Shown piece after piece: positions 540-61,009 of a DNA stretch of 64,000 bases. This stretch comes from an uncultured Pseudomonadales bacterium (GTDB lineage Bacteria; Patescibacteriota; Microgenomatia; UBA1400; Chazhemtobacteraceae), in the NCBI GenBank assembly GCA_964422035.1, contig CAYQZQ010000001.1, positions 587,786 through 651,785 on the forward strand, given 5' to 3'. The notes beneath the pieces are model-generated. The model was given only the letters and a program-made list of their open reading frames with translations. It ran no database searches and was not told where the DNA came from. Within the stretch, counting starts at the first letter, position 1. Each line of letters begins with the position of its first letter. The position numbers were made by a program, and so were the translations under genes.

Positions 540-791
540 ATGCCAGTATTACCACACGCAAAGAAAAAAATGCGCGTCGATGAGCGCAGGAAAAAAGTAA
601 ATAAAAAGATTCGAACAAAAGCTAAGAAGGCTATTTCTGCTTTCAGAGAAAGCCCTAGTGAAGATCTTTTAAGTAAAGCTTATTCAGCAATTGATAAAGC
701 AGCCAAAAAAAATGTCTATCATGAAGGAAAAGCTGATCGATTAAAATCTCGGCTAAACAAGCTTTTGGAAAAGAACAAGAAAAAAGACTAA
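540..791 (+). CDS. rpsT: 30S ribosomal protein S20
   Basis: 83 aa, strongly basic, Lys/Ala-rich. It has the S20-like pattern 'AKKxxRxxxxxRxxNKxxRTxxKxAI...AxxAIDKAAKKxVxHxxKAxRxKSRL'. Confidence 0.85.
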   Translation: MPVLPHAKKKMRVDERRKKVNKKIRTKAKKAISAFRESPSEDLLSKAYSAIDKAAKKNVYHEGKADRLKSRLNKLLEKNKKKD

Positions 792-800
792 AATAGAAGT

Positions 801-1358
801 GTGCCTGCCCCAAAGTCACTAAACCAGATTAACTTAGTTCCCAAAGATGAATTCGAAAAGGGTTTGTTAGGAAAGGGTGTTAAATGGGCCTTAACAGCCG
901 GTAAAACTATTGTTATCTTGACTGAATTTGTTGTTATTCTAGCTTTTTTGGTCCGATTTAAGCTGGACAGAGACTTAAATGATTTAAGTGAGCAAATTAC
1001 CCAAAAACAGTATGTTGTTGAGAATTTTTCTGACGTGGAAGAACAGATGAGAGATCTTCAGCTTCGGTTAGATCGAATTGAAGAAATTGAGCAGAAGACA
1101 ATTAATTTGTCGAGTGAGTGGGAATTATTGAAGGGTAAAATTCCAAAAAGTGTTACCTTACAGCAATTGCAGATTTCAAATGAGGAGCTAAATCTAGAAG
1201 CAGTAGCTGGATCAGAGTTAGGATTTTATAGTTTAGTAAATAATTTTAAGTCAGATGACAGATATAATGAGGTAAGTTTTTCAGAGGTTGAATTTAATCA
1301 AAGAAAAGGTGGGGTAATATTTTCATTAAAAGCTAGAAAGGAGGAGCTAGATGGCTGA
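801..1358 (+). CDS. pilN: Type IV pilus assembly protein PilN-like (fimbrial assembly; N-terminal TM plus coiled coil)
   Basis: N-terminal 'QINLVPKDE' matches the PilN 'INLLP' signature. A single TM helix (IVILTEFVVILAFLV) is followed by a coiled-coil periplasmic region. The gene overlaps the next ORF by 8 nt. Confidence 0.5.
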   Translation: MPAPKSLNQINLVPKDEFEKGLLGKGVKWALTAGKTIVILTEFVVILAFLVRFKLDRDLNDLSEQITQKQYVVENFSDVEEQMRDLQLRLDRIEEIEQKTINLSSEWELLKGKIPKSVTLQQLQISNEELNLEAVAGSELGFYSLVNNFKSDDRYNEVSFSEVEFNQRKGGVIFSLKARKEELDG

Positions 1359-2025
1359 TCAACCACAATGGAGACAATCAGCGCAAAATTACTTGCAACA
1401 AGCTCAAGAAATCTATAAAGCTCAAGAAGTGATGGTAAAAACATCCTTCAAGTTGGTCATGTCTATTTTTGCAGTAGCTTTCTTTACACTATTTGCACTG
1501 AAACCTACTTTGGGGTCAATTTCTACTTTAGTAAAAAGAATCGAGGATCAAAAAGAAGTAAGCAGAAAGCTTGATAGTAAAATTGTGCAGCTTTCTCAAG
1601 CAGAAGATGTCTTAACTTCTAGAGGCAATATGATTAGAAGCCTGGCAGAAAAAGCAATAACAGATGGCCCAAGTGTTGATAGATTGGCACAACAGATAGA
1701 AGCGATTGCTAATGATAGTGGGGTATATTTAACTTCAGCAAATATTGAGGAGGTGCCTATTTTTGGTGAAGAAGATAGTGATGAGATAATCAAAAGCTCA
1801 AAGTTTTCATATGATCCTAAGCATAAGTTTGTAACATTTAGCTTTACTGTTGGGGGTAATCAGGACGAGATTATTGAATTTTTCAAGCAGTTGGAGAATA
1901 TTGAAAGAGCAATTCTACTAGCAAGAGTAAATTTTGAAAAACCTCAAAAGAGATTGGCTGGACAGCTACCCTTATTAGTTAATGGTAAAGCCACTATTTA
2001 TTATTTGCCTGATGATAATGAATAA
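1351..2025 (+). CDS. pilO: Type IV pilus assembly protein PilO-like
   Basis: 224 aa with an N-terminal coiled coil, one TM helix (LVMSIFAVAFFTLFAL) and a C-terminal alpha/beta domain. It is translationally coupled to the pilN-like ORF, which is typical PilN-PilO gene order. Confidence 0.45.
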   Translation: MADQPQWRQSAQNYLQQAQEIYKAQEVMVKTSFKLVMSIFAVAFFTLFALKPTLGSISTLVKRIEDQKEVSRKLDSKIVQLSQAEDVLTSRGNMIRSLAEKAITDGPSVDRLAQQIEAIANDSGVYLTSANIEEVPIFGEEDSDEIIKSSKFSYDPKHKFVTFSFTVGGNQDEIIEFFKQLENIERAILLARVNFEKPQKRLAGQLPLLVNGKATIYYLPDDNE

Positions 2026-2389
2026 AGATAAGTTTTTTTCTTCTAACTCTTTGGTTATTGGAATATTTACTTTACTGGCGGTGGGAAGTTGGGTAACTTT
2101 CGATGTATACAGAGGATTAACAAAATCTACTGTACCGGATGTATTGCAAGAACAAATAAGGCCGCTTAAGACAGAATTAGATGAAGAAATTGTAAATAAT
2201 TTACGGAATAGAAGACAGTTTAGTGATCAGTTTCTATTAATGGTTGAGTCAAAGGCACTGGAAGAACAAGAGGAAGGAGAGGGGGCTGTAGAGCTGGAGT
2301 TGATTAGAGATGAAAATCAAGTAGAAGAAGGTGACCAATCAACTTCTAGTGGGGCTATTGAGTCTAGCCCGAGTGCAGAAGTTAATTAA
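1982..2389 (+). CDS. Small membrane protein, acidic C-terminus (pilus-locus associated; PilP-like role speculative)
   Basis: 135 aa with one TM helix (LVIGIFTLLAVGSWV) and a Glu-rich tail. It overlaps pilO-like by 44 nt, so the true start may be an internal Met. Confidence 0.35.
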   Translation: MVKPLFIICLMIMNKDKFFSSNSLVIGIFTLLAVGSWVTFDVYRGLTKSTVPDVLQEQIRPLKTELDEEIVNNLRNRRQFSDQFLLMVESKALEEQEEGEGAVELELIRDENQVEEGDQSTSSGAIESSPSAEVN

Positions 2390-2409
2390 AGATGTTTAAA
2401 TATGTATAG

Positions 2410-3798
2410 ATGCCAGATATTAATTTAAAAAAGATACCAACAATATTAGGTTTACTGCTACTTTTAGTAGGAGTTGGAGCTGGAGTATATCTGGTGGCAA
2501 GTAATCAAAGTCTAGATCTTTTTAGCAAAGCTGGACCAACCGCAACACCCAGACAGGTCAAGGTTTCCAATATAGAAAGTGATGGGGCTACGATTTCTTG
2601 GGTGACAGACACCAGAGTTAAAGGATTTATCAAATATGGGACCAGTAAAAATAGTTTAGACAATACAGTAGCGGATGATAGAGATCAGACAAGTGGTGAA
2701 GGTTCGCAGTATACAACTCATTATGTAAGCTTGAATAATTTACAAGCTAGTCAAGAGTATTTTTATGCCATTGGCTCAGGATCACAGGTCTATCAAAATG
2801 ACGGCCAACCTTATCAGTTTAGGACTGCTCCAACTTCAGGTGGAAAACCGGCTGCAGATACGATAAATGGAAAGATTGTTGTAGCTGATGGAGAGTCGGC
2901 TCCAGGAACTATTGTGTATGTCCAGATTCAAGGGGGGGATTTAAGATCAGCGTTAAGTAAAGAAACTGGTACATGGACTTTACCTTTGGCAACAACGAGA
3001 ACAAAAGGTCTGTCTCAGTATTTAAGTTATGATCGCCAGAAAGAAAGATTAACGATAACTGCCCAAGGAGGAGAGCTGGGCACTGCCACGGCTCAAGTTT
3101 ATAGTGGCCAAGCTTCTCCCGTACCTGATATTAAACTGGGGGAGACTCACAACTTTTTAGATGAAGCTCCCCAGCAAGTAGCTGAACCAACTCCAACATC
3201 GGCTCCAGTCCAAGAAAGTGATGGGGAAGTGGCAACTGATTCAGCAGGTTTTAAAGATTTATCAGATGAAGAATTGAGTGGTTTAGAAGAAGTTGAGTTG
3301 GTTAATCCAGGTCAAGATGGAGAGAATGTAGCAACCAGTTCTCCAGCGCTCCAAGTGAAAGGGCCTGTTGGAAAAAAAATAACTATTACAGTAGAGTCAG
3401 AACCCCAAACTGCAGAAGGAGTGATTGGAGAAGACGGCAGTTATGTTTGGACTCCTCCTGAAAACTTGGAGCCAGGAGAACATACAGTAACTATTGAGTA
3501 TGAAGATGATAATGGTATTTTGCAGACGATTAAAAGAAGTTTTACGGTCTTGGCAGCAGGAGACTCGGATGATTTACCATCAATTACAGCTACAGATTCG
3601 GCAACTCCAACCTTAACACCCACACCAACACCGATAGCAACTGAATCGGGCAGGACAACAATGCCGTCTACGGAAAGTGGTGTGCCAGATCCAGGAACAA
3701 TGACCCCAACATTGTTAGTACTTTTAAGTGGAGTCTTCTTATTTGCGACAGGGATTATCTGGCAAATTAGACTTTTAAAAGTTAAAAATATACAGTAA
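2410..3798 (+). CDS. Surface protein with fibronectin-III/purple-acid-phosphatase-N-like domain and C-terminal TM anchor
   Basis: N-terminal signal-anchor (ILGLLLLLVGVGAGVYLV). The block 'VSNIESDGATISWVTDTRVKGFIKYGTSKNSLDNTV...YTTHYVSLNNLQASQEYFYAI' is FN3/PAP-N-like. There is a Pro/Thr-rich stalk, and the C-terminus 'VPDPGTMTPTLLVLLSGVFLFATGIIWQIRLLKVKNIQ' is a motif, then hydrophobic helix, then basic tail, which looks like a sorting signal. Confidence 0.6.
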   Translation: MPDINLKKIPTILGLLLLLVGVGAGVYLVASNQSLDLFSKAGPTATPRQVKVSNIESDGATISWVTDTRVKGFIKYGTSKNSLDNTVADDRDQTSGEGSQYTTHYVSLNNLQASQEYFYAIGSGSQVYQNDGQPYQFRTAPTSGGKPAADTINGKIVVADGESAPGTIVYVQIQGGDLRSALSKETGTWTLPLATTRTKGLSQYLSYDRQKERLTITAQGGELGTATAQVYSGQASPVPDIKLGETHNFLDEAPQQVAEPTPTSAPVQESDGEVATDSAGFKDLSDEELSGLEEVELVNPGQDGENVATSSPALQVKGPVGKKITITVESEPQTAEGVIGEDGSYVWTPPENLEPGEHTVTIEYEDDNGILQTIKRSFTVLAAGDSDDLPSITATDSATPTLTPTPTPIATESGRTTMPSTESGVPDPGTMTPTLLVLLSGVFLFATGIIWQIRLLKVKNIQ

Positions 3799-3807
3799 AG
3801 TAAAGAT

Positions 3808-5250
3808 ATGAACTCGCCTGCTCAGCCAAACGATCCACAGGATAATAAGCCACAAGATCAAATAAGTGATGGTGATGGTCAAGTAGATAAAAAGCAAAGT
3901 CCCCAAGGAGACATGGAGGAGAAAATTAGACACGGAGACTTGCCCTATCAAGAAAGTGAGCAACAGGAGAAGGTGCAAGAGACAAGCGAGAAAACACAAG
4001 ACAGTCAAGTTGGTGATTACGGGTTTTTAAACGAAGCTGGGGAGAAAGAGACTCAAGAGGTGAAAGGGACTCAGGAAGAAAGTGATACTCCTCAACAGGA
4101 GAACAAGAAGCATGTGGCGATAGAAAAGCAACAACCAATCGAAAAGGAGAGTTCAGAACTTAAAACTACAGAGCCTGTTGAAAATAATGCTAAAAAACAA
4201 GAAGGAAGCAATTTGCAACAAGCGGGGTTGCCGGATTTATCTGGAAATAATATGGAAGGTTCACCTCCTCCAGGACAGATGCCTCCTCCCCCTGCAGACA
4301 ATCAAGAGCCGGAAGTAAATGATCAAGAAGAAAAAAATGAAAAGGTGGTAAAGAAGAGTGGAAAGAAAATAAGTCCGAAAGTAATTGCGGGCGTATTGGG
4401 TTTATTATTGTTGGTTGGTGGTGGTGTGGTAGCGGTTACACAGTTTACAGATTTTAGTGGTGATATAAGGCAGAGAGCTAATGAATCTCTCCATTCTTGT
4501 GTAAATAATGGTGGTCAGTGTGCCCGAAACTCTACGTGTTGTTCTGGAAACTGTGATCTGAGTGGTGGAATGCCGGGAGTTTGTAGGGCAGCAACACCTC
4601 CCCCAAACCCTTGCAATCCTACACGAGATGCTTATTGTTATAACAGCACTGGAGGAGAATGTCAGCCGGATGGAGATGGAGGATGGTATTGTACAAATCC
4701 TGGCACACCTACTCCTGCCCTAAGTCCTGGCCCAGTTTGTGGAAACGGAGATTGCGAACAAGGAGAAACAGTGAATAATTGTCCTCAAGACTGTATATCA
4801 TGTGAGAGAGATATTGGCGGAGTTTGCATGATGGTGGACGCATGTCCCTATGAATGCTGGAACGATACGGCTTCTGATTGTTCTGCCCCAGATAAAACAT
4901 GTTGTACTTGCTCAGGAGTTCCAACTTCAACCAGTGCCCCTTCTCCAACCAGTGCCCCTTCTCCTAAAGTAGGAGGAGCTTGCATGACTACTAAGATATA
5001 TACAGAGGGCCCAAGTGGGTGGGTGGAAACAAGTCCAAGTGATCTGCCAGACAGAGTGAATATTGGTGATAGGATTAGATTGGCGGTTAAGGGTGATAGT
5101 GCGGGTGTAGTTGAGGGTCGATTTAAAGTCAATAATAGTAGTTGGATTTCAACTACAACTACAAATGAAAAAGGTGAATATTTCATTGAATATACTTTGA
5201 ATGAGGGTGGTCAATATACAATTGCAGGAGAAGTTTTATATGGAAAATAA
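3808..5250 (+). CDS. Cysteine-rich membrane-anchored surface protein (acidic disordered N-terminus, one TM, multiple Cys-knot-like modules)
   Basis: About 190 aa acidic/Gln-rich N-terminus, then TM (VIAGVLGLLLLVGGGVVAVTQF), then about 40 Cys in spaced modules (CVNNGGQCARNSTCCSGNCDLSGGMPGVC; CGNGDCEQGETVNNCPQDCISC...). It ends in a Cys-free beta-rich C-terminal domain. Confidence 0.55.
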   Translation: MNSPAQPNDPQDNKPQDQISDGDGQVDKKQSPQGDMEEKIRHGDLPYQESEQQEKVQETSEKTQDSQVGDYGFLNEAGEKETQEVKGTQEESDTPQQENKKHVAIEKQQPIEKESSELKTTEPVENNAKKQEGSNLQQAGLPDLSGNNMEGSPPPGQMPPPPADNQEPEVNDQEEKNEKVVKKSGKKISPKVIAGVLGLLLLVGGGVVAVTQFTDFSGDIRQRANESLHSCVNNGGQCARNSTCCSGNCDLSGGMPGVCRAATPPPNPCNPTRDAYCYNSTGGECQPDGDGGWYCTNPGTPTPALSPGPVCGNGDCEQGETVNNCPQDCISCERDIGGVCMMVDACPYECWNDTASDCSAPDKTCCTCSGVPTSTSAPSPTSAPSPKVGGACMTTKIYTEGPSGWVETSPSDLPDRVNIGDRIRLAVKGDSAGVVEGRFKVNNSSWISTTTTNEKGEYFIEYTLNEGGQYTIAGEVLYGK

Positions 5251-5752
5251 AAAGAAAATTTTAACTGCTGTTTTAATAGTTTTGCTTTTGGCAGCTATTG
5301 GGGTTTTTGTGATAGTTATCGTTCCGAGATTAACAACGGTTGATGAGGGAGTTGCTCCTACAGCTCCAGAAAGCATGCCAGCAGCGGCAGAGTGGAAAGG
5401 TGGTCAGTCATGTCAGCTGGCTTTTACATTACCTACTGAAGCCCCTACCCCTACTCCAACTGACACCCCTACCCCAACTGACACCCCTACTCCTACTCCC
5501 ACCGATACTCCAACCCCTACTCCAACTGACACCCCTACTCCCACCGATACTCCAACTGAGATAATAACCTCAACACCAACAGAAACAGTGAACCCAACTA
5601 CAACTAAGATTGCAGAAGCGACCCCAGCTGAGACAACCACAACCACCCCAACAGCTACAGAATTACCTGAGGCGGGAATTGGATTACCAACACTGGGTGC
5701 ACTTGGGGGCGGAGTAGTGATGATTCTTTTGGGGATTTTGTTGATTCTCTAA
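5201..5752 (+). CDS. Pro-Thr repeat surface protein with N-terminal signal-anchor and C-terminal 'LPEAG'-hydrophobic segment (sortase/exosortase-type sorting signal candidate)
   Basis: TM near the N-terminus (ILTAVLIVLLLAAIGVFVIVIV). Repeats of (TPTPTD)n. The C-terminus is '...ELPEAGIGLPTLGALGGGVVMILLGILLIL'. It overlaps the upstream ORF by 50 nt. Confidence 0.5.
   Translation: MRVVNIQLQEKFYMENKKKILTAVLIVLLLAAIGVFVIVIVPRLTTVDEGVAPTAPESMPAAAEWKGGQSCQLAFTLPTEAPTPTPTDTPTPTDTPTPTPTDTPTPTPTDTPTPTDTPTEIITSTPTETVNPTTTKIAEATPAETTTTTPTATELPEAGIGLPTLGALGGGVVMILLGILLIL
5440..5567 (+). repeat. In-frame tandem nucleotide repeat encoding (T-P-T-P-T-D)n linker
   Basis: Direct repeats of roughly 18-24 nt ('actgacacccctaccccaact...') are seen in the sequence. 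Artefactual ORFs appear in the other frames and on the antisense strand. Confidence 0.8.
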
Positions 5753-5771
5753 GCTTTGTACAATAGGGTCT

Positions 5772-7037
5772 ATGAAAGTTGCAATTATTGGTGGAGGTTT
5801 TACTGGTTTGGCAGCGGCGATGTATTTGATAGATAGAGGTGTTGAAGTTGAGGTGTGGGAAGCAAATGATCGATTGGGTGGGCTAGCAAAGAGTTTTGAA
5901 GTTGAAGAATGGGATTGGAATTTGGAAAAATATTATCATCATGTTTTTGCAAATGATAGAAAAATAATTGATTTATCCCACAAGGTTGGCTGGCCAGTTT
6001 TTTTTAACAGGCCAGTAACTAATGTGTGGGCAGATGGAAAAGAAGAACAACTGGACTCGCCTATTTCACTTTTAAGCTATTCAGGGTTGAGCTGGTGGCA
6101 ACGAATACGCATGGGCGCAGGGCTGGCAAGTTTAAAGGTTATTTTTTGTAAAGAGTTAGGTCAAAAGCTTGATCAATACAAAACTAGCCAGATTTTGCCT
6201 AAGTTAATCGGCAAGAAAGCATGTCAGAAAGTGTGGGAACCTTTACTGATAGCTAAGTTTGGCAAATATGCAGATGAGGTTAATATGGCTTGGTTTTGGG
6301 CCCGAGTGGTTAAAAGAACAAGCAAGCTGGGGTATTTTGAGGGAGGATTTGGCAAATTAGCTGAAAAGATTGGTGATTATATAGAAAGCAAAGGTGGAGC
6401 AATAAGATTAAACAAGAAAGTTGAAAAGGTTGAGAGAGAGGGTAAAAAATTTGTGGTTAATGATGAAGAGTTTGACAAGGTATTGTTAACTGTTCCCTCT
6501 GGATTGGTAAATAATATTGTGGGAGAAAAAGTAATTGATTTGCCAGAAATAAACTATTTATGGGGGCAGACTCTTGTCTTGGAGATGAAGAAAAGCTTTA
6601 TTGAAAGTTATTGGTTAAATATCTTAGAAAGGAACTGGCCATTTTTGGTAGCGGTGGAACACACAAAGTTTATTGATAAAGAAAAGTACGGAGACAGTCA
6701 TGTTTTGTATTTGGGGAATTATCTTGAAGAGGATAACGAAAAACTTGATATGGAGAAGGGGGAGTTGTTGGAGTTGTTTTGGCCGTATTTGAAAAAGATT
6801 AACCCTAGTTTTGAAAAGAACTGGATAAAAAGAAGTTGGAAGTTTCAAAGTCCATACGCTCAACCAGTTTTTCCGGTCAATTATTCAGAAGAGATTCTGG
6901 ACATTAAAACTAAAATGGATGGTGTTTATATGGCAAGCATGAGCCAGGTATACCCTTGGGACAGAGGAACAAATTTTGCAGTAGACATTGGAGAAAGAGC
7001 AGCTGAGTTAATTTTGGAAGATCAAGATGATTCATGA
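5772..7037 (+). CDS. FAD/NAD(P)-binding oxidoreductase (amine-oxidase / UDP-galactopyranose-mutase-like superfamily)
   Basis: N-terminal Rossmann 'MKVAIIGGGFTGLAAAMYL...VEVWEANDRLGGLAKSF' (GxGxxG...E...GG dinucleotide motif). 421 aa. It overlaps the downstream membrane protein by 11 nt. Confidence 0.7.
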   Translation: MKVAIIGGGFTGLAAAMYLIDRGVEVEVWEANDRLGGLAKSFEVEEWDWNLEKYYHHVFANDRKIIDLSHKVGWPVFFNRPVTNVWADGKEEQLDSPISLLSYSGLSWWQRIRMGAGLASLKVIFCKELGQKLDQYKTSQILPKLIGKKACQKVWEPLLIAKFGKYADEVNMAWFWARVVKRTSKLGYFEGGFGKLAEKIGDYIESKGGAIRLNKKVEKVEREGKKFVVNDEEFDKVLLTVPSGLVNNIVGEKVIDLPEINYLWGQTLVLEMKKSFIESYWLNILERNWPFLVAVEHTKFIDKEKYGDSHVLYLGNYLEEDNEKLDMEKGELLELFWPYLKKINPSFEKNWIKRSWKFQSPYAQPVFPVNYSEEILDIKTKMDGVYMASMSQVYPWDRGTNFAVDIGERAAELILEDQDDS

Positions 7038-8958
7038 TTTAAATTGGTGGATAAATATTAGCTTAAGCCTGTTGGTGGTTCAAATAGTGATAGGTTCGTG
7101 GTGGTTAATTGGACCAGGAAAAAAATTGGTTGATGGTGGATGGGCATGGGGAAGATTGTCTGGATGGTTGTTTGTGTCCTTATTGATTTGGTGGGCTAGT
7201 CATTTGATGGCCACAAATTCATTATGGGTGGTTAGAGGGGTGATGAGTGGTTTGTTGAGTGTATTGAGCGCGATTGTTATTAAAAAAAGAAAAGAGTGGA
7301 GAGAGCAGTTTAAGAAAAAATGGAGGTTTATTTTAACGGAAGAGGTTTTGTTTTTTATTGGTTTGTTAGGAATGGGGATCGTGAGAGGATTTAAGCCAGA
7401 AATTTTAGGTCTTGAGAAATTTATGGATGCAGGATTTATTAATAGTTATTTAGAGTCGACAAGCTTGCCGGTAGAAGATATGTGGTTTGCGGGAGGGACG
7501 ATCAACTACTATAGCTTTGGTCATTTTATGGGGTCAACGATGCTTAAGTGGTGGGGTGTGGGAATTGGAGTTGGGTATAATTTGCTTTTAGCATTGTTGG
7601 CAGGGTTGATTTTCTCGGGCAGTTTTTCTGTAAGTGCTAATTTGATTAGCTTAAAGGATCAGGTTATTGAAAAGAAAGTCTTGATTGGTGGTTTTGTTTC
7701 GTCTTTGTTGGTTGTACTGGGCGGTAATAGTCATACTCTTTGGTACGGATTAAGTAACAGAGGGTGGAAAGGGTACTGGTATGCAGATGCTACTCGATTT
7801 ATTGAAAATTCTATTCATGAATTTGCAAGTTATAGCTTGGTAGTAAGTGATTTGCATGCACATTTATGGGCTTTGCCGATTGTATTGTTTTTACTCTTTT
7901 TGATGATAGGTTGGTACAAGTCGGGCAATAAGATTATTTGGGAGATAGGTTGGGGAATATTGGTGGGGGTTTTGGTGATGACAAATACTTGGGATGTAAT
8001 GGTGTATGGACTTCTTTTGTTAATATGGACGGGTTGGTTGATGATGAAGGATGAAATTGAAAGCAAGGTGGTGATAAGGGCTGGATTGGTTACTTTAGGG
8101 ATGGCAGGACTGGTTTCTATGGGGTGGTGGTTGAACTTTTCATCTATCGGCCAAGGTATAGAAGTGGTAGAAAATGGTTCGTTGTTGTGGCAAATGGCAG
8201 TGTTGTGGGGAGGGCATGGGGTTTTGACGATAATTGCAATTAGAAAGGGTTGGTTAAAAAACAATCTTTTAATAGCAAGCATGGGGATGGGAGCTTTGGT
8301 GTTAATTTTGATTCCGGAGTTGGTTTATTTGAAAGACATCTACCCTACTCACCCTAGGGCAAATACGATGTTTAAGCTGACCTATCAGGCAATGTTATGG
8401 ATGAGTTTATTGGGCGGATATGTTTTAGCTGCAGGAGAAAAAATTGAGAAGGCGGTGACGATTGTTTTAAGTATTTGCTTTTTAAGTTTTGCTTGGTTTG
8501 CGTACAGAGATTTTTATTATTTTAAAAGTTATCAGGGAATTGATGGTGAAGGGTGGATAAAACAAGAATATACAGATGACTGGAAGGGAATTGAATGGCT
8601 GAGGAAAAACATTAAAAGACGACCTGTTGTTTTAGAAGCGGTGGGAGAAAGTTATACAAAATATGCGCGAGTGTCAGTTTTTTCAGGAAAGCCTACTGTA
8701 TTGGGGTGGAGGGTGCATGAATGGTTATGGAGAGGAGGGTTTGAGAAAGTGGCAGAAAGGACTGAGGAGGTAAGAGTGATATATGAGAATACAAACAGTC
8801 AAGAAGCTGAGAATATCTTAGAGAAACACCAGGTGGAATACATATTTTGGGGGGAGAAAGAAAACGAAAAATATGATGTTGATGAAAAAGCAATAAGAGA
8901 CTTGGGAGAAGTGGTTTTTAAAAGCGGGAAAACTGAAGTGATAGAAATTACTGATTAA
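7027..8958 (+). CDS. Large polytopic membrane protein (at least 12 TM) with C-terminal soluble domain; GT-C-type glycosyltransferase or polymerase-like
   Basis: 643 aa. There are many Trp/Gly-rich TM helices across residues 1-480, then a soluble C-terminal domain of about 150 aa. It is coupled to the upstream FAD oxidoreductase and adjacent to the LCP gene. Confidence 0.55.
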   Translation: MIHDLNWWINISLSLLVVQIVIGSWWLIGPGKKLVDGGWAWGRLSGWLFVSLLIWWASHLMATNSLWVVRGVMSGLLSVLSAIVIKKRKEWREQFKKKWRFILTEEVLFFIGLLGMGIVRGFKPEILGLEKFMDAGFINSYLESTSLPVEDMWFAGGTINYYSFGHFMGSTMLKWWGVGIGVGYNLLLALLAGLIFSGSFSVSANLISLKDQVIEKKVLIGGFVSSLLVVLGGNSHTLWYGLSNRGWKGYWYADATRFIENSIHEFASYSLVVSDLHAHLWALPIVLFLLFLMIGWYKSGNKIIWEIGWGILVGVLVMTNTWDVMVYGLLLLIWTGWLMMKDEIESKVVIRAGLVTLGMAGLVSMGWWLNFSSIGQGIEVVENGSLLWQMAVLWGGHGVLTIIAIRKGWLKNNLLIASMGMGALVLILIPELVYLKDIYPTHPRANTMFKLTYQAMLWMSLLGGYVLAAGEKIEKAVTIVLSICFLSFAWFAYRDFYYFKSYQGIDGEGWIKQEYTDDWKGIEWLRKNIKRRPVVLEAVGESYTKYARVSVFSGKPTVLGWRVHEWLWRGGFEKVAERTEEVRVIYENTNSQEAENILEKHQVEYIFWGEKENEKYDVDEKAIRDLGEVVFKSGKTEVIEITD

Positions 8959-12660: not shown

Positions 12661-13671
12661 ATGATTAGAAAAATAAAAGAGAGGGAAAGAGAAGAATTTA
12701 ATAAGCTCGCCAGTCATCCTTTACAGGCTTGGGAGTGGGGGGAGTTCCGTAAGGAAACTGATATTGCAGTACTAAGGTTGGGTCGATATGAGAGTGATCA
12801 GTTGATTGAAACAGCTCAGATTACCTTTCACAAGATTCCTAGACTACCCTGGTCTGTGGGATATTGGCCGAAGGGAAAAATTCCAAGCAAGCAGATGATT
12901 GAGGCAGTCAAAAAAGAAGCAGAAGTGCATAAGGCAATAATGATCAAGTTGGAGCCAAATATCTTAGCAGAGGAGGGCAAGAGTAAGATAGATGAGCTTA
13001 AGAAGGATTTTAGATTAGTTGAAGGCAGGTCACTGTTTACCAAATGGAGTTTTTGGCTGGATCTTAAAAAAGACACTGAAGATATTTTGATGGATATGAA
13101 GAATAAAACACGTTACAACATCCGGTACGCAGATCGGCAAGGAGTTGAAGTGGTTAGAGATAATTCTTGGGAAAGCTTTGATAAATACTGGCGACTGATG
13201 AAAAGAACTATGGATCGACAGAACTTTTATGCTCATGATAAGGAATATCACAAATTGATGTTTAAAAACCTAAAGGGGGAAATAGCGCAATTGTTTAGAG
13301 CTGAGTACAATGGAGAAACACTAACAGCTTGGGTTGTGTTTGTTTTAAATGGTGTTCTTTATTACCCATATGGAGCTTCGACTCGCAAGCATAGAAATGT
13401 ACAAGCTTCGTCGCGAATGACTTGGGAGGTTATAAAGTTTGGCAAGGATCGAGGTTGCACTTTGTTTGATATGTGGGGCAGCCCTGGACCAAAACCAGAA
13501 AAAAGTGATCCGTGGTATGGTTTTTGGAGGTTTAAAAAAGGATTTGGGGCAAGGATTGTAGAGTTTGTCGGCAGCTGGGATCTGGTTTTGAGTCCATTTT
13601 TATATTCAATCTATCGGATTGGAAATACTACAAGATGGAAGATTTTGCGCTGGAAAGCTAAGCTGAAATAA
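12661..13671 (+). CDS. FemAB-family aminoacyl-tRNA-dependent peptidoglycan peptidyltransferase (GNAT fold)
   Basis: 336 aa. The C-terminal signature 'YYPYGASTRKHRNVQASSRMTWEVIKFGKDRGCTLFDMWG...WYGFWRFKKGFGARIVEFVGSWDL' matches the FemAB pattern (YYyGAS...y.FKkgFGg..ve.iG.fdl). Confidence 0.6.
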   Translation: MIRKIKEREREEFNKLASHPLQAWEWGEFRKETDIAVLRLGRYESDQLIETAQITFHKIPRLPWSVGYWPKGKIPSKQMIEAVKKEAEVHKAIMIKLEPNILAEEGKSKIDELKKDFRLVEGRSLFTKWSFWLDLKKDTEDILMDMKNKTRYNIRYADRQGVEVVRDNSWESFDKYWRLMKRTMDRQNFYAHDKEYHKLMFKNLKGEIAQLFRAEYNGETLTAWVVFVLNGVLYYPYGASTRKHRNVQASSRMTWEVIKFGKDRGCTLFDMWGSPGPKPEKSDPWYGFWRFKKGFGARIVEFVGSWDLVLSPFLYSIYRIGNTTRWKILRWKAKLK

Positions 13672-13675
13672 CAAG

Positions 13676-14500
13676 ATGGTTGACTTAAGGCAAAGTGATT
13701 TATATGCTCATTATCAAGAATTGAGGGACTGGGAGGTATCAGAGGTTTTTGATAAGAAAGGTAAAGCTGTGCAGGTGTTTATCAAACACATGCCGGTGGT
13801 GAAAGTTTCTGTGCTTAAGTGCCAGAGATTTGAAAGAGTGCCTGACTGGAGTTTGTTTAAGAAGTTTAAAAAGAAGAATAGAGTTGTATATACAGTTTTG
13901 GAGCCTTTGGGCGGAAGTAGGGAAAACTACCAGAGAGAGGGTTATAAAGTTAATAAGAACTCTTATCTTCCTACTCAGACAGTGGTGATTTCTTTAAATA
14001 AAGAAAGGGACTGTTTGTGGAATGATTTGTCAAAAGATGCGAGAAAAACTATCAATGATAGTAGGGTGGAAATTAGAAAATTAGATGGCAAAGCTGAAAG
14101 GAATGATTTTTGGAAAAAATGGAATAGTGAAAGTAAAATTATTACTCCCAGTTGGAAAAGTTTTCAGGACTTAATAGAGAGTTTTGATAAGAACATGTGG
14201 CTTATGGGCGCGTTTTTAGATAAAGAAATGGTGGCTGGCACGATAGTTTTGATTGCTGAAAGGAGAGCGTATTATTATTATGCCTGGACCAGCTTGAGAG
14301 GCCGTGAAGCGGGCGGACAATACAAGCTAGTCTGGGAAAGTATTTTGAGACTCAAAAAAGAAGATGTTGAATTTTTTGACTTAGAAGGGGTTGAGGATGA
14401 AAGATGGCCGAGAAAGAGTTGGAGAGGTTTTTCGCGTTTTAAAAGCAAATTTGGAGGTGAGAAGGTGTCTTTTTTGGGAAGTTTTTCTAAGTGGTTTTAA
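13676..14500 (+). CDS. FemAB-family paralogue (shorter, 274 aa)
   Basis: 'YYYAWTSLRGREAGGQYKLVWESILRLKKEDVEFFDLEG...FSRFKSKFGGEKVSFLGSF' repeats the FemAB C-terminal core. It sits immediately downstream of the first paralogue. Confidence 0.5.
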   Translation: MVDLRQSDLYAHYQELRDWEVSEVFDKKGKAVQVFIKHMPVVKVSVLKCQRFERVPDWSLFKKFKKKNRVVYTVLEPLGGSRENYQREGYKVNKNSYLPTQTVVISLNKERDCLWNDLSKDARKTINDSRVEIRKLDGKAERNDFWKKWNSESKIITPSWKSFQDLIESFDKNMWLMGAFLDKEMVAGTIVLIAERRAYYYYAWTSLRGREAGGQYKLVWESILRLKKEDVEFFDLEGVEDERWPRKSWRGFSRFKSKFGGEKVSFLGSFSKWF

Positions 14501-21667: not shown

Positions 21668-23179
21668 ATGAATAGATTATTATCTCCCATTAGAAAATTA
21701 ATTATAAAATACCCAAGAAGGTCAGAAAGAGTCTTGGAGATCTTGCCAGGTTTTGTATCTTGGAGTTTAATTTTATTTCCAGTTTGGGGCTCATTTTTTT
21801 GGCCTATCGGGGTAGCTTATTACATTATCGCCTTTGATGTTTACTGGTTTTACCGATCAGTATCCATGGGGGTAGCAGTTTTGGTAACTCATTTTAGAAT
21901 TAAGGCAGCTAGTAGTTATGATTGGATGGGCGATGTTAACGATTTCCCCGGATGGGAGGAGATGAGACACGCGATTGTAATACCAAACTACAACGAGCCA
22001 ACGCATCTTCTTGAAAGAGCTTTAGATAGTTTAGTTGCACAAACATTCCCAAGCAACAAGATCATTCCGATCATTGCGTGTGAGGAAAGAGCTGGAAAAG
22101 AGTTGTTTGAAGAAAGAAAAAGGGTATTAAAAGATAAATTTGAAGGCAAGTTTGATAAATTGATGTTCACTTTGCATCCGGCAGATATTGAGGGAGAAGT
22201 GGCTGGGAAATCAGCAAATGCTGCTTGGGCTTCTAAGAAGTTTAGAGAGGAAAAAGAGAAACATCCCGAATGGGAGGATAAGTATATGACCATTTCTTCT
22301 ATGGACATGGATATGGTTTATCACCCTAATTATTTTGCTAATTTGACTTACAACTTTCTAGATAATCCCGATAGGTACAGAAGGATCTGGCAAGGCGCAA
22401 TTGTTTACTACAACAACATCGATCAAATCCCGGGCCCGATGCGAGTATTTAATAGAATATCTTCGATCTTTCAGATGGCTTTATTGGTCAGGCAAGACAG
22501 ATTGATTAATTTTTCTACTTATTCAATGTCGGTTAAGCTAATGGAAGAGGTGGGATACTGGGATGCTGATGTTATTCCAGAAGATTATAGAATGTTTTTT
22601 AAGAGCTACTTTACTACTGGGGGAGAAGTTGAGGTTGAGCCGATTTTCTTGATTATTTCAGGGGATGCAGCAGAGTCTCACAATTTCTGGGGGACATTTA
22701 AAAACACTTATACACAAGTAAAAAGATGGGCATGGGGGGCAAGTGACGATGCATATATTTTGAAGAATTATTTTTTAGACACAGAGGCAGACTTTGGCGA
22801 TAAAACAGTAAGGGTGTTTAAGATTCTTGAAGATCACTTTTTGTGGCCTGTTAATTGGTTTATCGTTACTTTAGGAGCCACTTTGCCTCCCCTTTTGAAT
22901 GAAGATTTTTCGAGAACAATCATCGGTAAAACATTACCTCAGATAGCAAGTGCGATCTTAACTGTGTCGTTGGTTAGCTTAGTTGCAAGCCTATTTGTTG
23001 AGTTTAGAGCAAGGCCTGATTTAAAAAATTCTTCTTTGTTCAAGAAGATCATGGCTCCTCTTGAATTGATACTTTTACCATTTGTTGGGCTTTTCTTTTC
23101 AGCATTACCGGGACTGGAAGCACACACTCGTTTAATGCTTGGGAAATATATTGAATACCGAGTGACTGAGAAAGTTTAA
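21668..23179 (+). CDS. Membrane-bound family-2 glycosyltransferase (processive beta-glycan-synthase-like)
   Basis: TM helices flank a cytoplasmic GT-A domain: 'AIVIPNYNEP' (GT2 start), a 'DMDMV' DxD motif and a C-terminal multi-TM region. 503 aa. Confidence 0.7.
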   Translation: MNRLLSPIRKLIIKYPRRSERVLEILPGFVSWSLILFPVWGSFFWPIGVAYYIIAFDVYWFYRSVSMGVAVLVTHFRIKAASSYDWMGDVNDFPGWEEMRHAIVIPNYNEPTHLLERALDSLVAQTFPSNKIIPIIACEERAGKELFEERKRVLKDKFEGKFDKLMFTLHPADIEGEVAGKSANAAWASKKFREEKEKHPEWEDKYMTISSMDMDMVYHPNYFANLTYNFLDNPDRYRRIWQGAIVYYNNIDQIPGPMRVFNRISSIFQMALLVRQDRLINFSTYSMSVKLMEEVGYWDADVIPEDYRMFFKSYFTTGGEVEVEPIFLIISGDAAESHNFWGTFKNTYTQVKRWAWGASDDAYILKNYFLDTEADFGDKTVRVFKILEDHFLWPVNWFIVTLGATLPPLLNEDFSRTIIGKTLPQIASAILTVSLVSLVASLFVEFRARPDLKNSSLFKKIMAPLELILLPFVGLFFSALPGLEAHTRLMLGKYIEYRVTEKV

Positions 23180-23332
23180 TCGAAATGGGCGGACAAAGGT
23201 AAGGTGAAGAGTTGTTAATATAAGGGCATTGGAGTAGTCGAAAAGTTTATGTTGTGAAATGGTGAGGCTAAGATTAAGAAATTATTACTCATTGTTGGCC
23301 ATGACTTGTGTGATAAGGAAAAAAATAATTAA

Positions 23333-24841
23333 ATGAAGATATTGATGAAAAAAAGATGGCAAGCTTTTAAAGACTGGGTCGAGAATAATCGAGGGGTAAT
23401 TATAGTTTTGTTAATTGTGTCTTTATTGCGGGTTCCGAACTTGTTTGAGCCAGCATGGTATGGAGATGAGGGGATTTATTTAGCGGTGGGACAGGGGATA
23501 AAGCGTGGTTTGGTTTTATACAAAGAGATCTTTGATCATAAGCCACCAATTATTTATTGGTTAGCTGCCTTATCTGGTGAGCTATTGTGGTTTAAGGTGG
23601 TTGGAATCATAGCTAATTTTTTAAGTATAGTAGTGATACATAAGATTAGTGAGAAGTTGTTTAGTAAAAAGAATGTTTCATTTGTAGTTACGTTGTTTTT
23701 TGGTGTAATTACTACTCTTCCTTGGATTGAAGGGAATATTGTTAATGCTGAGTTGTTGTTTATCTTGACAACAAGTTTGGCAGTATGGATTTTGATCAGG
23801 AAGAGAATGATGAATGTTAAGTGGGTTGATTTATTATTTGCAGGAATTATGTTGGGGGTTGGTGTCTTACTAAAAGCCCCCGTTTTATTGGATATAGCAG
23901 CTGTTTCTCTTTGGTTTATTGCCTTTAGAAAGGGATTGAAGATCTATTGGGGAGAGATTTGGAAAGTGGTGGTTTTGGGAGTTGGGGTTCTTATTCCTTC
24001 AGCTTTGGCTGGTATATATTTTTGGATAGAGGGAGTCTTTAATGAATATTTAATTGCAGCATGGGGTCAAAACTTTTCTTATCTTAGTTCTTGGGGGGGC
24101 GGAGAAGGATTATCTACGGGGGCTGCTGAAGGTGGGGGATTAATGATGAGGGGGATTGTTTTAGTAGTTTGGTTGTTGATTGTTTGGTGGTGGACTAGAA
24201 AAGAAAAAGTGAAAATGAGATTGATTGTGGTATGGTTTGGGATGGCTTTGTTTGGAGCTCTATTGGCGGGAAGACCTTATCCTCATTACTTAATCCAAAT
24301 CGCCCCGGCGGGAGCTTTGTTAATTGGAGTAATTTGGGAGACAAAAAATAAAGGAACTGTGCTTAGCGGTTGCTTGGGACTGATGTTATTGGTAGTAGCT
24401 ATTTTTAAATATGATTTTGGTTTTTATAAATCAGTAGAGTATTACAAAAATTTTGGACGTTATGTAGCTGGCAAGATAGGACAAACAGAATTTTATGATA
24501 GTTTTGACTGGAGGGTAAGTAGAAATTATCAAATCGGTAAATATATAAGAGAAAGGACAGATAAAAATGATCGAATTTATATTTGGAGTGATGAACCTAA
24601 TATTTACGTTCTTTCAGAGAGATCTCCAGCAGGTAAGTGGGTGATGGCTTATCATATTGATATTTTTGACAAAAAAGATGGGGTTTTGGAAGCTATTAAA
24701 GAAGAAAAGCCTAAATTTATTCTTTGGCCTAAAGAAGCAAGAGAGTTTAAAGCTTTGTCCTCCTATAGAGAAGCATGGTATATACAAGTAGAAGAATTTC
24801 AAGGGATGAAGGTTTATCGCAGAATGAATTGGAAGCAGTGA
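23333..24841 (+). CDS. GT-C fold glycosyltransferase (PMT/ArnT/GT39/83-like polyprenyl-phosphate-sugar dependent transferase)
   Basis: 502 aa. 'PAWYGDEGIYLAVGQ' sits in the first extracytoplasmic loop (DE motif of PMT/ArnT-type enzymes). It has about 11 TM helices and a C-terminal soluble domain. Confidence 0.55.
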   Translation: MKILMKKRWQAFKDWVENNRGVIIVLLIVSLLRVPNLFEPAWYGDEGIYLAVGQGIKRGLVLYKEIFDHKPPIIYWLAALSGELLWFKVVGIIANFLSIVVIHKISEKLFSKKNVSFVVTLFFGVITTLPWIEGNIVNAELLFILTTSLAVWILIRKRMMNVKWVDLLFAGIMLGVGVLLKAPVLLDIAAVSLWFIAFRKGLKIYWGEIWKVVVLGVGVLIPSALAGIYFWIEGVFNEYLIAAWGQNFSYLSSWGGGEGLSTGAAEGGGLMMRGIVLVVWLLIVWWWTRKEKVKMRLIVVWFGMALFGALLAGRPYPHYLIQIAPAGALLIGVIWETKNKGTVLSGCLGLMLLVVAIFKYDFGFYKSVEYYKNFGRYVAGKIGQTEFYDSFDWRVSRNYQIGKYIRERTDKNDRIYIWSDEPNIYVLSERSPAGKWVMAYHIDIFDKKDGVLEAIKEEKPKFILWPKEAREFKALSSYREAWYIQVEEFQGMKVYRRMNWKQ

Positions 24842-24853
24842 TATACTGTAGGC

Positions 24854-25201
24854 ATGGAAAAAGATGTCGAGAAAGATAAGAAAGGGATTGAAATAGTCAT
24901 AATTGTGTTGGCCGTTGTGTGGTTTCTTTCAGCAGCACTACTGCTGGTTTTTTGGAAAAAGCTCCCCCCAGAGATGCCGTGGTTTTATTCTTTGCCGTGG
25001 GGAGAAGAACAGTTGATAAGTAAAGAGGGGATGGTGTTTGTAATGGGTGGATTAGGAGGAGTGATAGGATTAGATATCTTTTTTGCCAAAAGACTGGAAA
25101 AAGAAGATGAATTTTTGACAAAGATGTTGCTGTGGGGAGCATTGGCTACAACAGGATTGGTTTTATTAAGTTGGATTAAGGTGTTGATAATCATTTTATG
25201 A
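24854..25201 (+). CDS. Small membrane protein (3 TM)
   Basis: 115 aa and hydrophobic. It is abutted by GT genes on both sides and shares a 4-nt overlap with the next gene. Confidence 0.4.
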   Translation: MEKDVEKDKKGIEIVIIVLAVVWFLSAALLLVFWKKLPPEMPWFYSLPWGEEQLISKEGMVFVMGGLGGVIGLDIFFAKRLEKEDEFLTKMLLWGALATTGLVLLSWIKVLIIIL

Positions 25202-26295
25202 ACATGGAAGAAATGAGGTTAATATGGGGACCACTGTTTTTATCAATGGTTGTTTCTTGGGTTGTTAGTAAGCTGGTTATAAAGATTTATAAAAAAATAG
25301 GGTGGGTAATTGACCCTAAAAAACAAAAACACCCAGCACATGTCCACAAAAAACCGGTACCTAAAGGGGGAGGGATTTCAGTTTTTTTTGGTAGCGTAGC
25401 GGCAATGATGGTTTTTTTACCCTTAGACGGACATTTGATAGCAATCATTTTGGCGGGTTTGCTTTTGGTATCCGTGGGCGTTTGGGATGATGCAAGTGAT
25501 ATAAGCCCGATATTGAGATTGTTGGTAAATTTTTTGGCGGCAGGCATTGTAATTGGAGCAGGTATTGGAATTGCCTATGTAACCAACCCTTTTGGATCAG
25601 GAATAATTCATTTGAATCAACCACAATTAAGCTTTTATCTTTTGGATAAGCAAAGAAGCATCTGGCTTTTAGCTGATTTATTAGCTTTGCTGTGGATTCC
25701 TTTTATGATTAATGCTGTTAACTGGAGTAGTGGGCTAGACGGACAAATTGCAGGGGTGGTACCGATAGCTGCTGCTACTATTGGAATACTATCTTTTAGA
25801 TTTAGTGCTGATGTTACCCAGTGGCCGGTAGCTATTGCGGCTTTTTCTTTAGCGGGTGCTTTTTTGGGATATTTGCCATATAGTTTTTATCCCCAGAAAT
25901 CTATGCCTGGATATGGCGGGGCAGGTTATGCAGGGTTCATGTTGGCAGTTTTAGCAATTTTATCTACAACTAAGGTGGGAACGGCGATGGTGGTTTTGGG
26001 TGTTCCATTAATCGACGCTATATATGTAGGTGTAAGCAGAATTATTAAAGGGAAATTGCCTTGGAAGGGTGGGAGAGAGCATCTGCATCATAAGTTAATG
26101 GATCTGGGGTGGGGAAAAAGGCGAATAGCAGTTTTTTACTGGTTGGTTACTGGGTTATTGGGGTTGATTGCATTAAGTTTGAACAGTAGACAGAAGCTAT
26201 ATACAATGGTGGCAATAGCTGTTATTTTAGGAGGCTTTTTTATATGGGTATCGCAAGGGCACTTGTTAGAACTGCAAGACCAAGACAATGGTTAA
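25198..26295 (+). CDS. Polyprenyl-phosphate N-acetylhexosamine-1-phosphate transferase (GT4, WecA/TagO/MraY superfamily)
   Basis: 'VGVWDDASDISP' (the DDxxD Mg2+ motif of MraY/WecA), 'NAVNWSSGLDG' (NxxNxxDGxDG) and about 10 TM helices. Confidence 0.75.
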   Translation: MNMEEMRLIWGPLFLSMVVSWVVSKLVIKIYKKIGWVIDPKKQKHPAHVHKKPVPKGGGISVFFGSVAAMMVFLPLDGHLIAIILAGLLLVSVGVWDDASDISPILRLLVNFLAAGIVIGAGIGIAYVTNPFGSGIIHLNQPQLSFYLLDKQRSIWLLADLLALLWIPFMINAVNWSSGLDGQIAGVVPIAAATIGILSFRFSADVTQWPVAIAAFSLAGAFLGYLPYSFYPQKSMPGYGGAGYAGFMLAVLAILSTTKVGTAMVVLGVPLIDAIYVGVSRIIKGKLPWKGGREHLHHKLMDLGWGKRRIAVFYWLVTGLLGLIALSLNSRQKLYTMVAIAVILGGFFIWVSQGHLLELQDQDNG

Positions 26296-60954: not shown

Positions 60955-61009
60955 GAATTTACGGTGGTTAGTAATTGTGAGTATAGTTTACTATGAACAA
61001 AGGAAGAAA

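Follow-up and report, generated by a model that had tools for sequence, protein, structure and literature searches.

The membrane proteins PilN and PilO belong to the alignment subcomplex of the type IV pilus (T4P) machine, PilM-PilN-PilO(-PilP-PilQ), which has been described for Myxococcus xanthus (structure 3jc8) and Pseudomonas aeruginosa. In characterised systems, an INLLP-type peptide at the N-terminus of PilN docks the cytoplasmic protein PilM. In the Saccharibacteria, each of the two loci contains PilM, PilN and PilO as a group, and in TM7x the three sit with PilB and PilC (PMC11623550). The closed genome of Ch65, a relative of the bacterium considered here, has a single T4P locus that encodes PilA, minor pilins, PilD, PilB, PilT, PilC and PilM; PilN and PilO are not listed in it (PMC7143001). 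We describe here a cassette of six genes, pilN, pilO and four genes for envelope proteins (C to F), in a DNA stretch of 64,000 nucleotides (nt) from a bacterium of the Candidate Phyla Radiation (CPR), Microgenomates group; the whole stretch that was analysed, positions 1-64000, is called the window below. Taken as a whole, the locus is best explained, in our judgment with slightly better than even confidence, as a conserved Microgenomates operon that pairs PilN/PilO with the envelope proteins C to F, of which D and F are probable sortase substrates, as a pilus-associated module.

The cassette resembles the T4P alignment operons in its two protein families, in the single transmembrane (TM) helix of each protein and in the INLLP-type motif of PilN, but it has no adjacent pilM and there is no pilB, pilC, pilT, pilD or pilin gene within about 10 kb. 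It is split where the TM7x loci are not. Compared with diderms, the positions of pilP and pilQ are taken in the cassette by protein C and by a three-domain Ig-fold protein (D) with a predicted wall-sorting tail. The nearest analogue is the Pam pili (Troman et al. 2026, bioRxiv 10.64898/2026.03.03.709456), which are restricted to the CPR and have also been reported in Microgenomatia. Both systems have Ig/FnIII-fold proteins, N-terminal signal sequences and C-terminal TM helices; PamR has two FnIII domains and a C-terminal TM anchor, and paired cysteines and glycosylation have been reported for Pam proteins (same preprint). However, the Pam operon lies beside ATP synthase, CorB and MFS genes and includes PapD-like chaperones, and the Pam paper makes no mention of PilN/PilO, whereas the cassette, compared with Pam by description only, has PilN/PilO, lies by murJ and contains no chaperone-like gene. 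The SpaA-type sortase-assembled pilus islands also have adjacent genes for Ig-fold proteins with LPXTG-like tails. Unlike them, the cassette has PilN/PilO and lacks a pilus-specific (class C) sortase in or near the cluster in 28 loci. The conserved cassette and its signal variant are undescribed in any paper that we found; the parts (PilN, PilO, LPXTG-type cargo and Ig-fold surface proteins) are of known kinds.

The cassette and the gene that precedes it are laid out as follows (positions in the window; aa, amino acids):

540-791, + strand: rpsT, ribosomal protein S20 (Pfam Ribosomal_S20p, E 1e-12), the first gene of the packed unit, 9 nt upstream of pilN
801-1358, + strand: A, PilN by family match (PF05137, 25.7 bits against a cut-off of 22.8)
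1351-2025, + strand: B, PilO by profile match, overlapping pilN by 8 nt; one TM helix, a coiled region and a PilO domain
2012-2389, + strand: C, a small bitopic membrane protein of about 125 aa, with a TM helix, a conserved segment (about 45 aa) and an acidic tail
2410-3798, + strand: D, an envelope protein with three beta-sandwich domains and a candidate C-terminal sorting tail (Pfam, AlphaFold2 model)
3661-3795, + strand: the candidate sorting tail of D, with MPSTESG-VPDPG, TMTPT, a hydrophobic helix and RLLKVKNIQ
3808-5250, + strand: E, a bitopic Cys-rich protein (number and spacing of its cysteines)
5240-5752, + strand: F, a stalk-like protein (tandem repeat, LPEAG tail)

All six + strand open reading frames (ORFs), A to F, are present in the ORF list of the window at the coordinates claimed for them in a preliminary description of this DNA. 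They are part of a packed + strand unit that runs from rpsT to a DUF2298 membrane protein ending at 8958. Every junction in this unit is between -14 and +20 nt, no convincing + strand terminator was found inside it (540-8958), and scans with Rfam and for tRNAs found nothing in the cassette region. C to F are bitopic envelope proteins encoded in the same orientation with overlaps or gaps of at most 20 nt, as the preliminary description had anticipated in calling three of the downstream products surface proteins and the other a small TM protein.

By sequence, A is PilN and B is PilO, as had been proposed; both are membrane proteins that serve in the alignment of the T4P machine. In A, 'INLVP' occupies residues 10-14 (nt 828-842) of a short cytoplasmic N-terminus, which is followed by a single TM helix (aa 29-56) and an extracytoplasmic PilN domain. 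The evidence is stronger when orthologues are included, and for this purpose PilN and PilO profiles were built from the orthologues of 27 related loci. The PilN family (PF05137) was matched by 22 of the 25 A orthologues (best E 1.8e-14), the A orthologue profile finds the M. xanthus PilN structure 3jc8 (E 2.5e-7), and an N-terminal I-[NS]-L-L-P motif is conserved among the PilN orthologues (alignment A3). Protein B taken alone scores 12.9 bits against the Pfam PilO family PF04350, which is under the cut-off of 22. However, 20 of the 24 B orthologues match PF04350 (best E 6e-14), and the B orthologue profile finds the PilO structures 3jc8 (E 6e-10), 2rjz of P. aeruginosa (E 4.6e-4) and 5uvr.

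The related loci are the neighbourhoods of D homologues together with the results of a scan of species-representative genomes, and they come from Chisholmbacteria, Shapirobacteria and metagenome-assembled genomes of Microgenomates. Although the identity of D across the 27 loci is only 24-50%, the order A-B-C-D is kept in 26 of the 26 loci that include upstream sequence. A Cys-rich gene like E comes next in most of them, and an F-type gene is present in 19 of the 22 loci with enough downstream sequence; in one locus (L027) E and F are fused. Because the order recurs in 27 loci in spite of this divergence of D, the arrangement, judged by sequence, is not chance. Thirteen of these loci (L007, L010, L012, L013, L015, L016, L018, L020-L023, L025 and L026) are recorded as 'uncultured Gammaproteobacteria', 'Nevskiaceae' or 'Pseudomonadales'. 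These labels are probably wrong, because the gene content and the cassette are typical of Microgenomates.

The genes upstream of pilN in the window are rpsT and murJ. At the related loci the upstream neighbour is always murJ, sometimes with rpsT between (rpsT has the same position at many of them), and it is never pilM. The search for pilM, prepilin and PilB/T-type ATPase genes found none in the 64-kb window or within about 10 kb at the 27 loci; prepilins and PilB/T ATPases were searched for as sequence patterns (regular expressions, with the Walker motifs for PilB/T). It is clear, as the preliminary description had stated, that pilM is not adjacent and that this is not a canonical pilMNOPQ operon. 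Since the T4P locus of Ch65 lists no PilN/PilO and the Saccharibacteria keep PilM, PilN and PilO together, the split of pilN and pilO from pilM looks like a Microgenomates trait, and the pair in the cassette is probably the only PilN/PilO of its machine.

Protein C probably starts at 2012 or 2018, as judged by comparison with its orthologues, and has a single TM helix. It matches no Pfam or NCBIfam family, and each of the 26 loci with upstream sequence has it, after pilO and before D. The idea that C is a third paralogue of PilN and PilO was rejected, as hhalign gave probabilities of 7% (PilN) and 0.5% (PilO). The acidic tail of C, which has no C-terminal helix, contains 'STSSG' (nt 2342-2353), and a conserved '[AS]T[ES]SG' occurs a few residues before the stop in C orthologues (alignment A7), like the 'STESG' that precedes the pentapeptide in the tail of D. 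This element of the C tail may be a glycosylation or recognition element.

Protein D begins with an N-terminal helix (aa 6-32), followed by three domains recognised by Pfam, FN3/PAP_N (aa 47-139), CarboxypepD_reg-like (151-248) and Big_13 (296-380), and by a T/P-rich linker between the domains and the C-terminal tail. The match to Pur_ac_phosph_N/FN3 has an E of 9.5e-12. The AlphaFold2 model, with a predicted local distance difference test (pLDDT) score of 83.8, has three beta-sandwich domains, disordered linkers and two terminal helices, and when compared with the PDB by Foldseek it finds generic tandem FN3/Ig proteins only (contactins, SiiE and ice-binding adhesins, and the surface-layer (S-layer) protein SlaB). 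There are at least 134 D homologues, and all of the matches with a named source belong to the Patescibacteria or Microgenomates candidate phyla (Collier-, Beckwith- and Amesbacteria or Patescibacteria). The N-terminal helix has an unusual pattern: in an alignment of 99 D sequences P10 never varies, and the conservation of T11, G14 and G25 is 90% or more. This is far more than in an ordinary signal peptide and suggests a specific membrane partner. A juxtamembrane pattern 'LV.Q.Q(E).R..A' follows the N-terminal helix in D, E and some F proteins (D 2410-2540, E 4360-4480; alignments A5, A6 and A8); most F proteins have 'RLYQLREEP-VAPTAP' instead. Going by these alignments, the pattern may mark a lineage-specific signal-peptide or anchor region.

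Protein E has an acidic low-complexity cytoplasmic N-terminus, a TM helix (aa 187-214, nt 4366-4449), Cys-rich modules (aa 231-368, nt 4498-4911) and a C-terminal beta-rich domain (aa 387-480, nt 4966-5247) that is conserved in the orthologues. The preliminary description had credited it with about 40 Cys; the count is 23, and 22 of these are in the modules. The spacing in the first module is C-x6-C-x5-CC-x3-C-x9-C, which has no Pfam match and which we take to be compatible with the knottin/inhibitor cystine knot consensus. The E orthologues vary greatly, with 4 to 65 Cys in the Cys-rich part and lengths of 229 to 1032 aa, and one relative at 70% identity carries four additional repeats. The AlphaFold2 single-sequence model of E is unreliable (pLDDT 44 overall and about 72 for the first Cys module). 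A match of the E profile to 8zvk among PDB sequences was discarded as low complexity, as it falls in the Cys-rich, T/P-rich part upstream of the C-terminal domain. One segment, 'CGNGDCEQGETVNNCPQDC' (nt 4738-4794, aa 311-329), matches a short Cys-rich repeat, 'CGNGxCExGE..CPxDC', that is found in many unrelated proteins in up to about 10 copies, for example in the trypsin-domain proteins P0127 and P0135, and that has no Pfam family.

Protein F, with a probable start at 5240, has a TM or signal helix, a conserved 'VAPTAP' (nt 5351-5368), a single Cys and a (TPTPTD)n tandem repeat (5435-5557). It ends in LPEAG (nt 5663-5677) and 24 mostly hydrophobic residues up to the stop, with no basic tail. 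A disulfide between E and F had been considered from their odd Cys counts, but the idea was dropped because the parity is inconsistent across the loci.

No stretch of the D family is more conserved than the C-terminal tail. The consensus of the tail is R-x-S-[MQ]-P-S-T-E-S-G-[VIL]-P-x-[SAP]-G-x-L-T-P-T, followed by a helix and basic residues; in the D protein of the window it reads 'MPSTESGVPDPG', then a helix and then 'RLLKVKNIQ', with the pentapeptide VPDPG at nt 3682-3696. The dominant motif of the family is VP[E/D/T][S/A/P]G between a conserved 'MPSTESG' and 'LTPT'. The tail of 102 of 120 D homologues contains the pattern [LIVMTAS]PxxG, although some of these picks may be the downstream LTPTxG. 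In these 102 tails the first residue of the motif is V, I or L in 90 cases, and a K or R is found within the last 12 aa in 96. Conservation in the tail is highest at the P and G of the pentapeptide, and all 99 sequences of the alignment have the tail glycine G429. The F tails have the form LP[E/K/S/Q/A]AG-x-x-[LFW]P-x, helix, stop.

Several results connect the two kinds of tail. A hidden Markov model (HMM) of the D tails detects the tail of F in the window with 17.5 bits (E about 1e-4, 6.5e-5) among 576 ORFs of at least 40 aa, and D and F are the only ones among these that bear such a tail. The F orthologue of locus L010 has a D-type tail, 'TMPSTESGIPESG', and locus L005 has a second F-type paralogue with a hybrid tail. 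The HMM also finds an unrelated secreted protein of 100 aa, L010:5253-5555 (+), about 5 kb upstream of the cassette, which consists of a signal peptide, a (TP)n linker and 'LPETGILTPTFF...' at the stop; its tail, 'LPETGILTPTFFLIVGG...', has a canonical LPETG in the same register as the D tails. The C-terminal motif thus recurs in other proteins, both in the F-type tails and in this unrelated one. The candidate sortase-site peptides are:

STESGVPESGVLTPT
TELPEAGIGLPT
AELPETGILTPT

When genome contigs were scanned with a degenerate DNA pattern for [ST][MQ]PST[EAP][SA]G[VI]P, 274 stretches were found, of which 25 are D relatives; the excess over these 25 was not counted as recurrence of the motif, as it may consist of chance matches or of other tail-bearing proteins.

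At the level of sequence, a single conserved and lineage-specific signal, [VIL]P-x-[SAPT]-G, 'LTPT' and a hydrophobic helix, is present in variant forms in the D and F tails. Like the LPXTG signals described by TIGR01167, it has a pentapeptide that ends in G at a median distance of about 29 residues from the C-terminus; a hydrophobic helix comes after the pentapeptide, and D also has a basic tail. It is unlike them in the dominant VP[E/D/T][S/A/P]G, with 'MPSTESG' before it and 'LTPT' after it, and in F tails that have no basic residues. The preliminary description had called the basic tail optional; D has one and F has none. Two D orthologue tails pass the TIGR01167 LPXTG_anchor model (cut-off 15.9 bits) with 21.6 and 22.0 bits, and the tail of one F orthologue reaches 13.2 bits. 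Because F has no basic tail and some of the residues are non-canonical, we infer, and do not state as a fact, that the tail is a lineage-specific variant of the LPXTG-type sorting signal. D and F are probable sortase substrates. Sortase is 'near ubiquitous in Microgenomates' and patchy in the rest of the CPR (PMC6744442), and the closed genome of Ch65 has one (PMC7143001); from this literature on the lineage we infer that the source genome also has a sortase. No ORF of the TLxTC type (regular expression with H and R) was found in the 64-kb window or at the 27 loci (about 10 kb). Two adjacent genes of the FemAB family, whose products are lipid II cross-bridge aminoacyl transferases, are present in the window at 12661-14500 (+). 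The pair suggests that the peptidoglycan has an interpeptide bridge, which is the usual nucleophile for sortase anchoring.

The explanation that we favour can be put together as follows. The operon would consist of murJ, rpsT (in some lineages), pilN-pilO-C-D-E-F and envelope-glycosylation genes; the genes for PilM, the ATPases and the pilins would lie elsewhere, which is what has been reported for Ch65. A housekeeping sortase would cleave the divergent LPXTG signal and link D and F to the peptidoglycan. The T/P/S-rich linkers of D and F would carry glycans, and E would contain disulfide bonds. The CPR show an enrichment of MdbA-like oxidoreductases (PMC6744442). As the genes of the cassette are inherited together throughout the class, D, E and F would act at or beside the pilus base, possibly as an adhesive module, anchored in the wall or spanning it, of a monoderm without PilP/PilQ. 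That C to F act with the pilus is our reading of the invariant synteny, the overlaps of the translational-coupling type and the conserved N-terminal helix of D. A bolder version, which we offer as a speculation and consider rather unlikely as it stands, is that C to F and PilN/PilO make up an undescribed outer module that the T4P machine has in monoderm CPR only. The N-terminal helix of D would keep the protein in the membrane beside PilN, PilO and C, sortase would staple D to the peptidoglycan, and D would fill the role of PilP/PilQ/TsaP in wall alignment and anchoring. At the site where the pilus exits, E and F would then form a glycosylated stalk with a disulfide-rich head that diversifies rapidly.

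Several points weigh against the explanation of a pilus-associated module of sortase-anchored proteins. Synteny is the single line of evidence that links D, E and F functionally to the pilus, the fold of D is generic, and three loci (L002, L023 and L024) keep A to D without E and F. In the source genome, the check for sortase, pilM and other pilus genes covered the 64-kb window. In addition, the broader envelope-biogenesis neighbourhood (murJ, LCP, GT-C and UbiA) could explain the co-location of the genes without any role in the pilus. The last point leads to the alternative that D, E and F are general wall or S-layer-like glycoproteins or adhesins of an envelope supercluster (murJ, LCP, UbiA, GT-C and the amine-oxidase-like enzyme described below) and that pilN and pilO merely share their transcription unit. 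We doubt this but take it seriously, as envelope synthesis genes neighbour the cassette in all of the loci, D resembles tandem FN3/Ig adhesins and SlaB (generically only), E shows the hypervariability often seen in host-interaction or surface proteins, and E and F are missing from the three loci just named, which keep A to D. However, the pilN-pilO-C-D order is invariant over a deep divergence and the reading frames overlap, which would be unusual for unrelated genes in streamlined genomes, and the conservation of the N-terminal helix of D, beyond that of an ordinary signal peptide, suggests a specific membrane partner. The preliminary description had offered 'pilus-coupled adhesins' or a 'surface-layer locus', and of these the pilus link is drawn from conserved synteny and tight packing only. 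It is also conceivable that the PilN/PilO-like pair works outside of a type IV pilus altogether, as the scaffold of a separate, undescribed surface assembly with C to F as its subunits. There is no pilus gene within about 10 kb in 28 loci and the association with C and D is strict, both of which would fit. But the PilM-docking motif is still present in PilN, neither pilin-like nor donor-strand features were detected in D, E or F, and a Ch65 pilus locus that lists PilM without PilN/PilO (PMC7143001) implies that the cassette pair completes that machine, and so we regard a separate assembly as improbable.

The tails themselves raise further objections to sortase anchoring. The D and F tails of the window match no NCBIfam sorting-signal model at E<=10, the F-type tails of all orthologues end with the helix and have no basic residues, which classical signals have, and the pentapeptide departs from the canonical one by V at position 1 and by P, S or A at position 4. 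The C-terminal helices might instead be permanent membrane anchors, as proposed for PamC, PamD and PamR, with [VIL]PxxG/'STESG' serving as a hinge or a glycosylation sequon. The failure of the window tails to match TIGR01167 and the F tails without basic residues fit this idea, as does the 'STESG'-like element at the end of C, a protein with no C-terminal helix to anchor, and C-terminal TM anchors have been reported for other CPR surface-filament proteins (bioRxiv 10.64898/2026.03.03.709456). We nevertheless think it unlikely: positionally homologous tails of the family pass the LPXTG model and an unrelated protein has a canonical LPETG in frame, the P and G of the pentapeptide are the positions most strongly conserved, and sortase is near-universal in the class (PMC6744442). 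The preliminary description had likened the tails to either sortase or exosortase cargo, and while the sortase-type part is supported by a conserved and recurring signal, the exosortase part is not. Under the latter the tails would be exosortase/archaeosortase signals (PEP-CTERM or PGF-CTERM-like) processed by an enzyme of the EpsH family, and the layout of T/P-rich linker, short motif and TM helix does look superficially like that of PGF-CTERM glycoproteins. However, the PEP-CTERM, PGF-CTERM and other exosortase-type NCBIfam models match none of 9 tails at E<=10, the sorting models that were matched are of the LPXTG type only, and no conserved multi-pass candidate enzyme is nearby except glycosyltransferase-like proteins. 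This last alternative is hardly credible.

The packed unit continues 3' of the cassette with two genes that were assigned by Pfam/NCBIfam:

5772-7037, + strand: amine-oxidase-like flavin adenine dinucleotide (FAD) protein, PRK07233 family; junction +19 nt
7027-8958, + strand: DUF2298/'YYY' GT-C-like membrane protein; junction -11 nt

These genes (5772-8958) probably have a role in envelope glycosylation. Similar genes are found downstream at the related loci, namely those for the amine-oxidase-like FAD protein, UbiA, GT-C glycosyltransferases (PMT_2 and DUF2298) and an LCP protein, and a trio of FAD protein, UbiA and GT-C lies 3' of the cassette in many of them. It is a speculation that the trio glycosylates the T/P/S-rich linkers. 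The window has a second cluster of the glycosylation type at 21668-27176, with a GT2-like protein, a multi-pass protein of 502 aa, Glycos_transf_4 and UbiA.

Other parts of the window display some patterns of their own. The GC skew is +0.15 to +0.49 over the whole window, independent of the gene strand, and it keeps its sign at an origin-type region, dnaA-dnaN/rnpA-yidC (dnaA 54572-55963, dnaN 56276-57394). The cassette region has the lowest GC skew in the window, and the proteins encoded on the two strands visibly differ in composition. A one-directional G/C strand disparity has been reported for the UBA1400 lineage (Ch65, Collier- and Beckwithbacteria; PMC7143001), and the skew of the window matches it. 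Genes like those of type IV secretion or conjugation are present beside the origin region, at 58444-63705 on the - strand, and a further ATPase gene is found at some distance from them:

58444-60954, - strand: large membrane protein with a C-terminal M23 peptidase
61010-62917, - strand: VirB4/TraG-P-loop ATPase
62914-63705, - strand: weak TraC-like protein
34987-37485, - strand: HerA/DUF87 ATPase fused to an S1 domain

In conclusion, it is poorly understood how type IV pili of monoderm bacteria, which are without PilP and PilQ, cross the envelope and are anchored in it, and pili are considered central to the way in which CPR bacteria live as episymbionts. A class-wide operon that splits pilN and pilO from pilM names concrete candidates for the envelope partners of the pilus, the Ig-fold, Cys-rich and stalk proteins. 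The divergent LPXTG-type signal is missed by TIGR01167 for D and F of the window and for several of the orthologue tails that were compared with the model. By means of this signal, the sortase 'surfaceome' of the Microgenomates could be enumerated. Such a listing would help to pick out the host-contact proteins of organisms that are unculturable.

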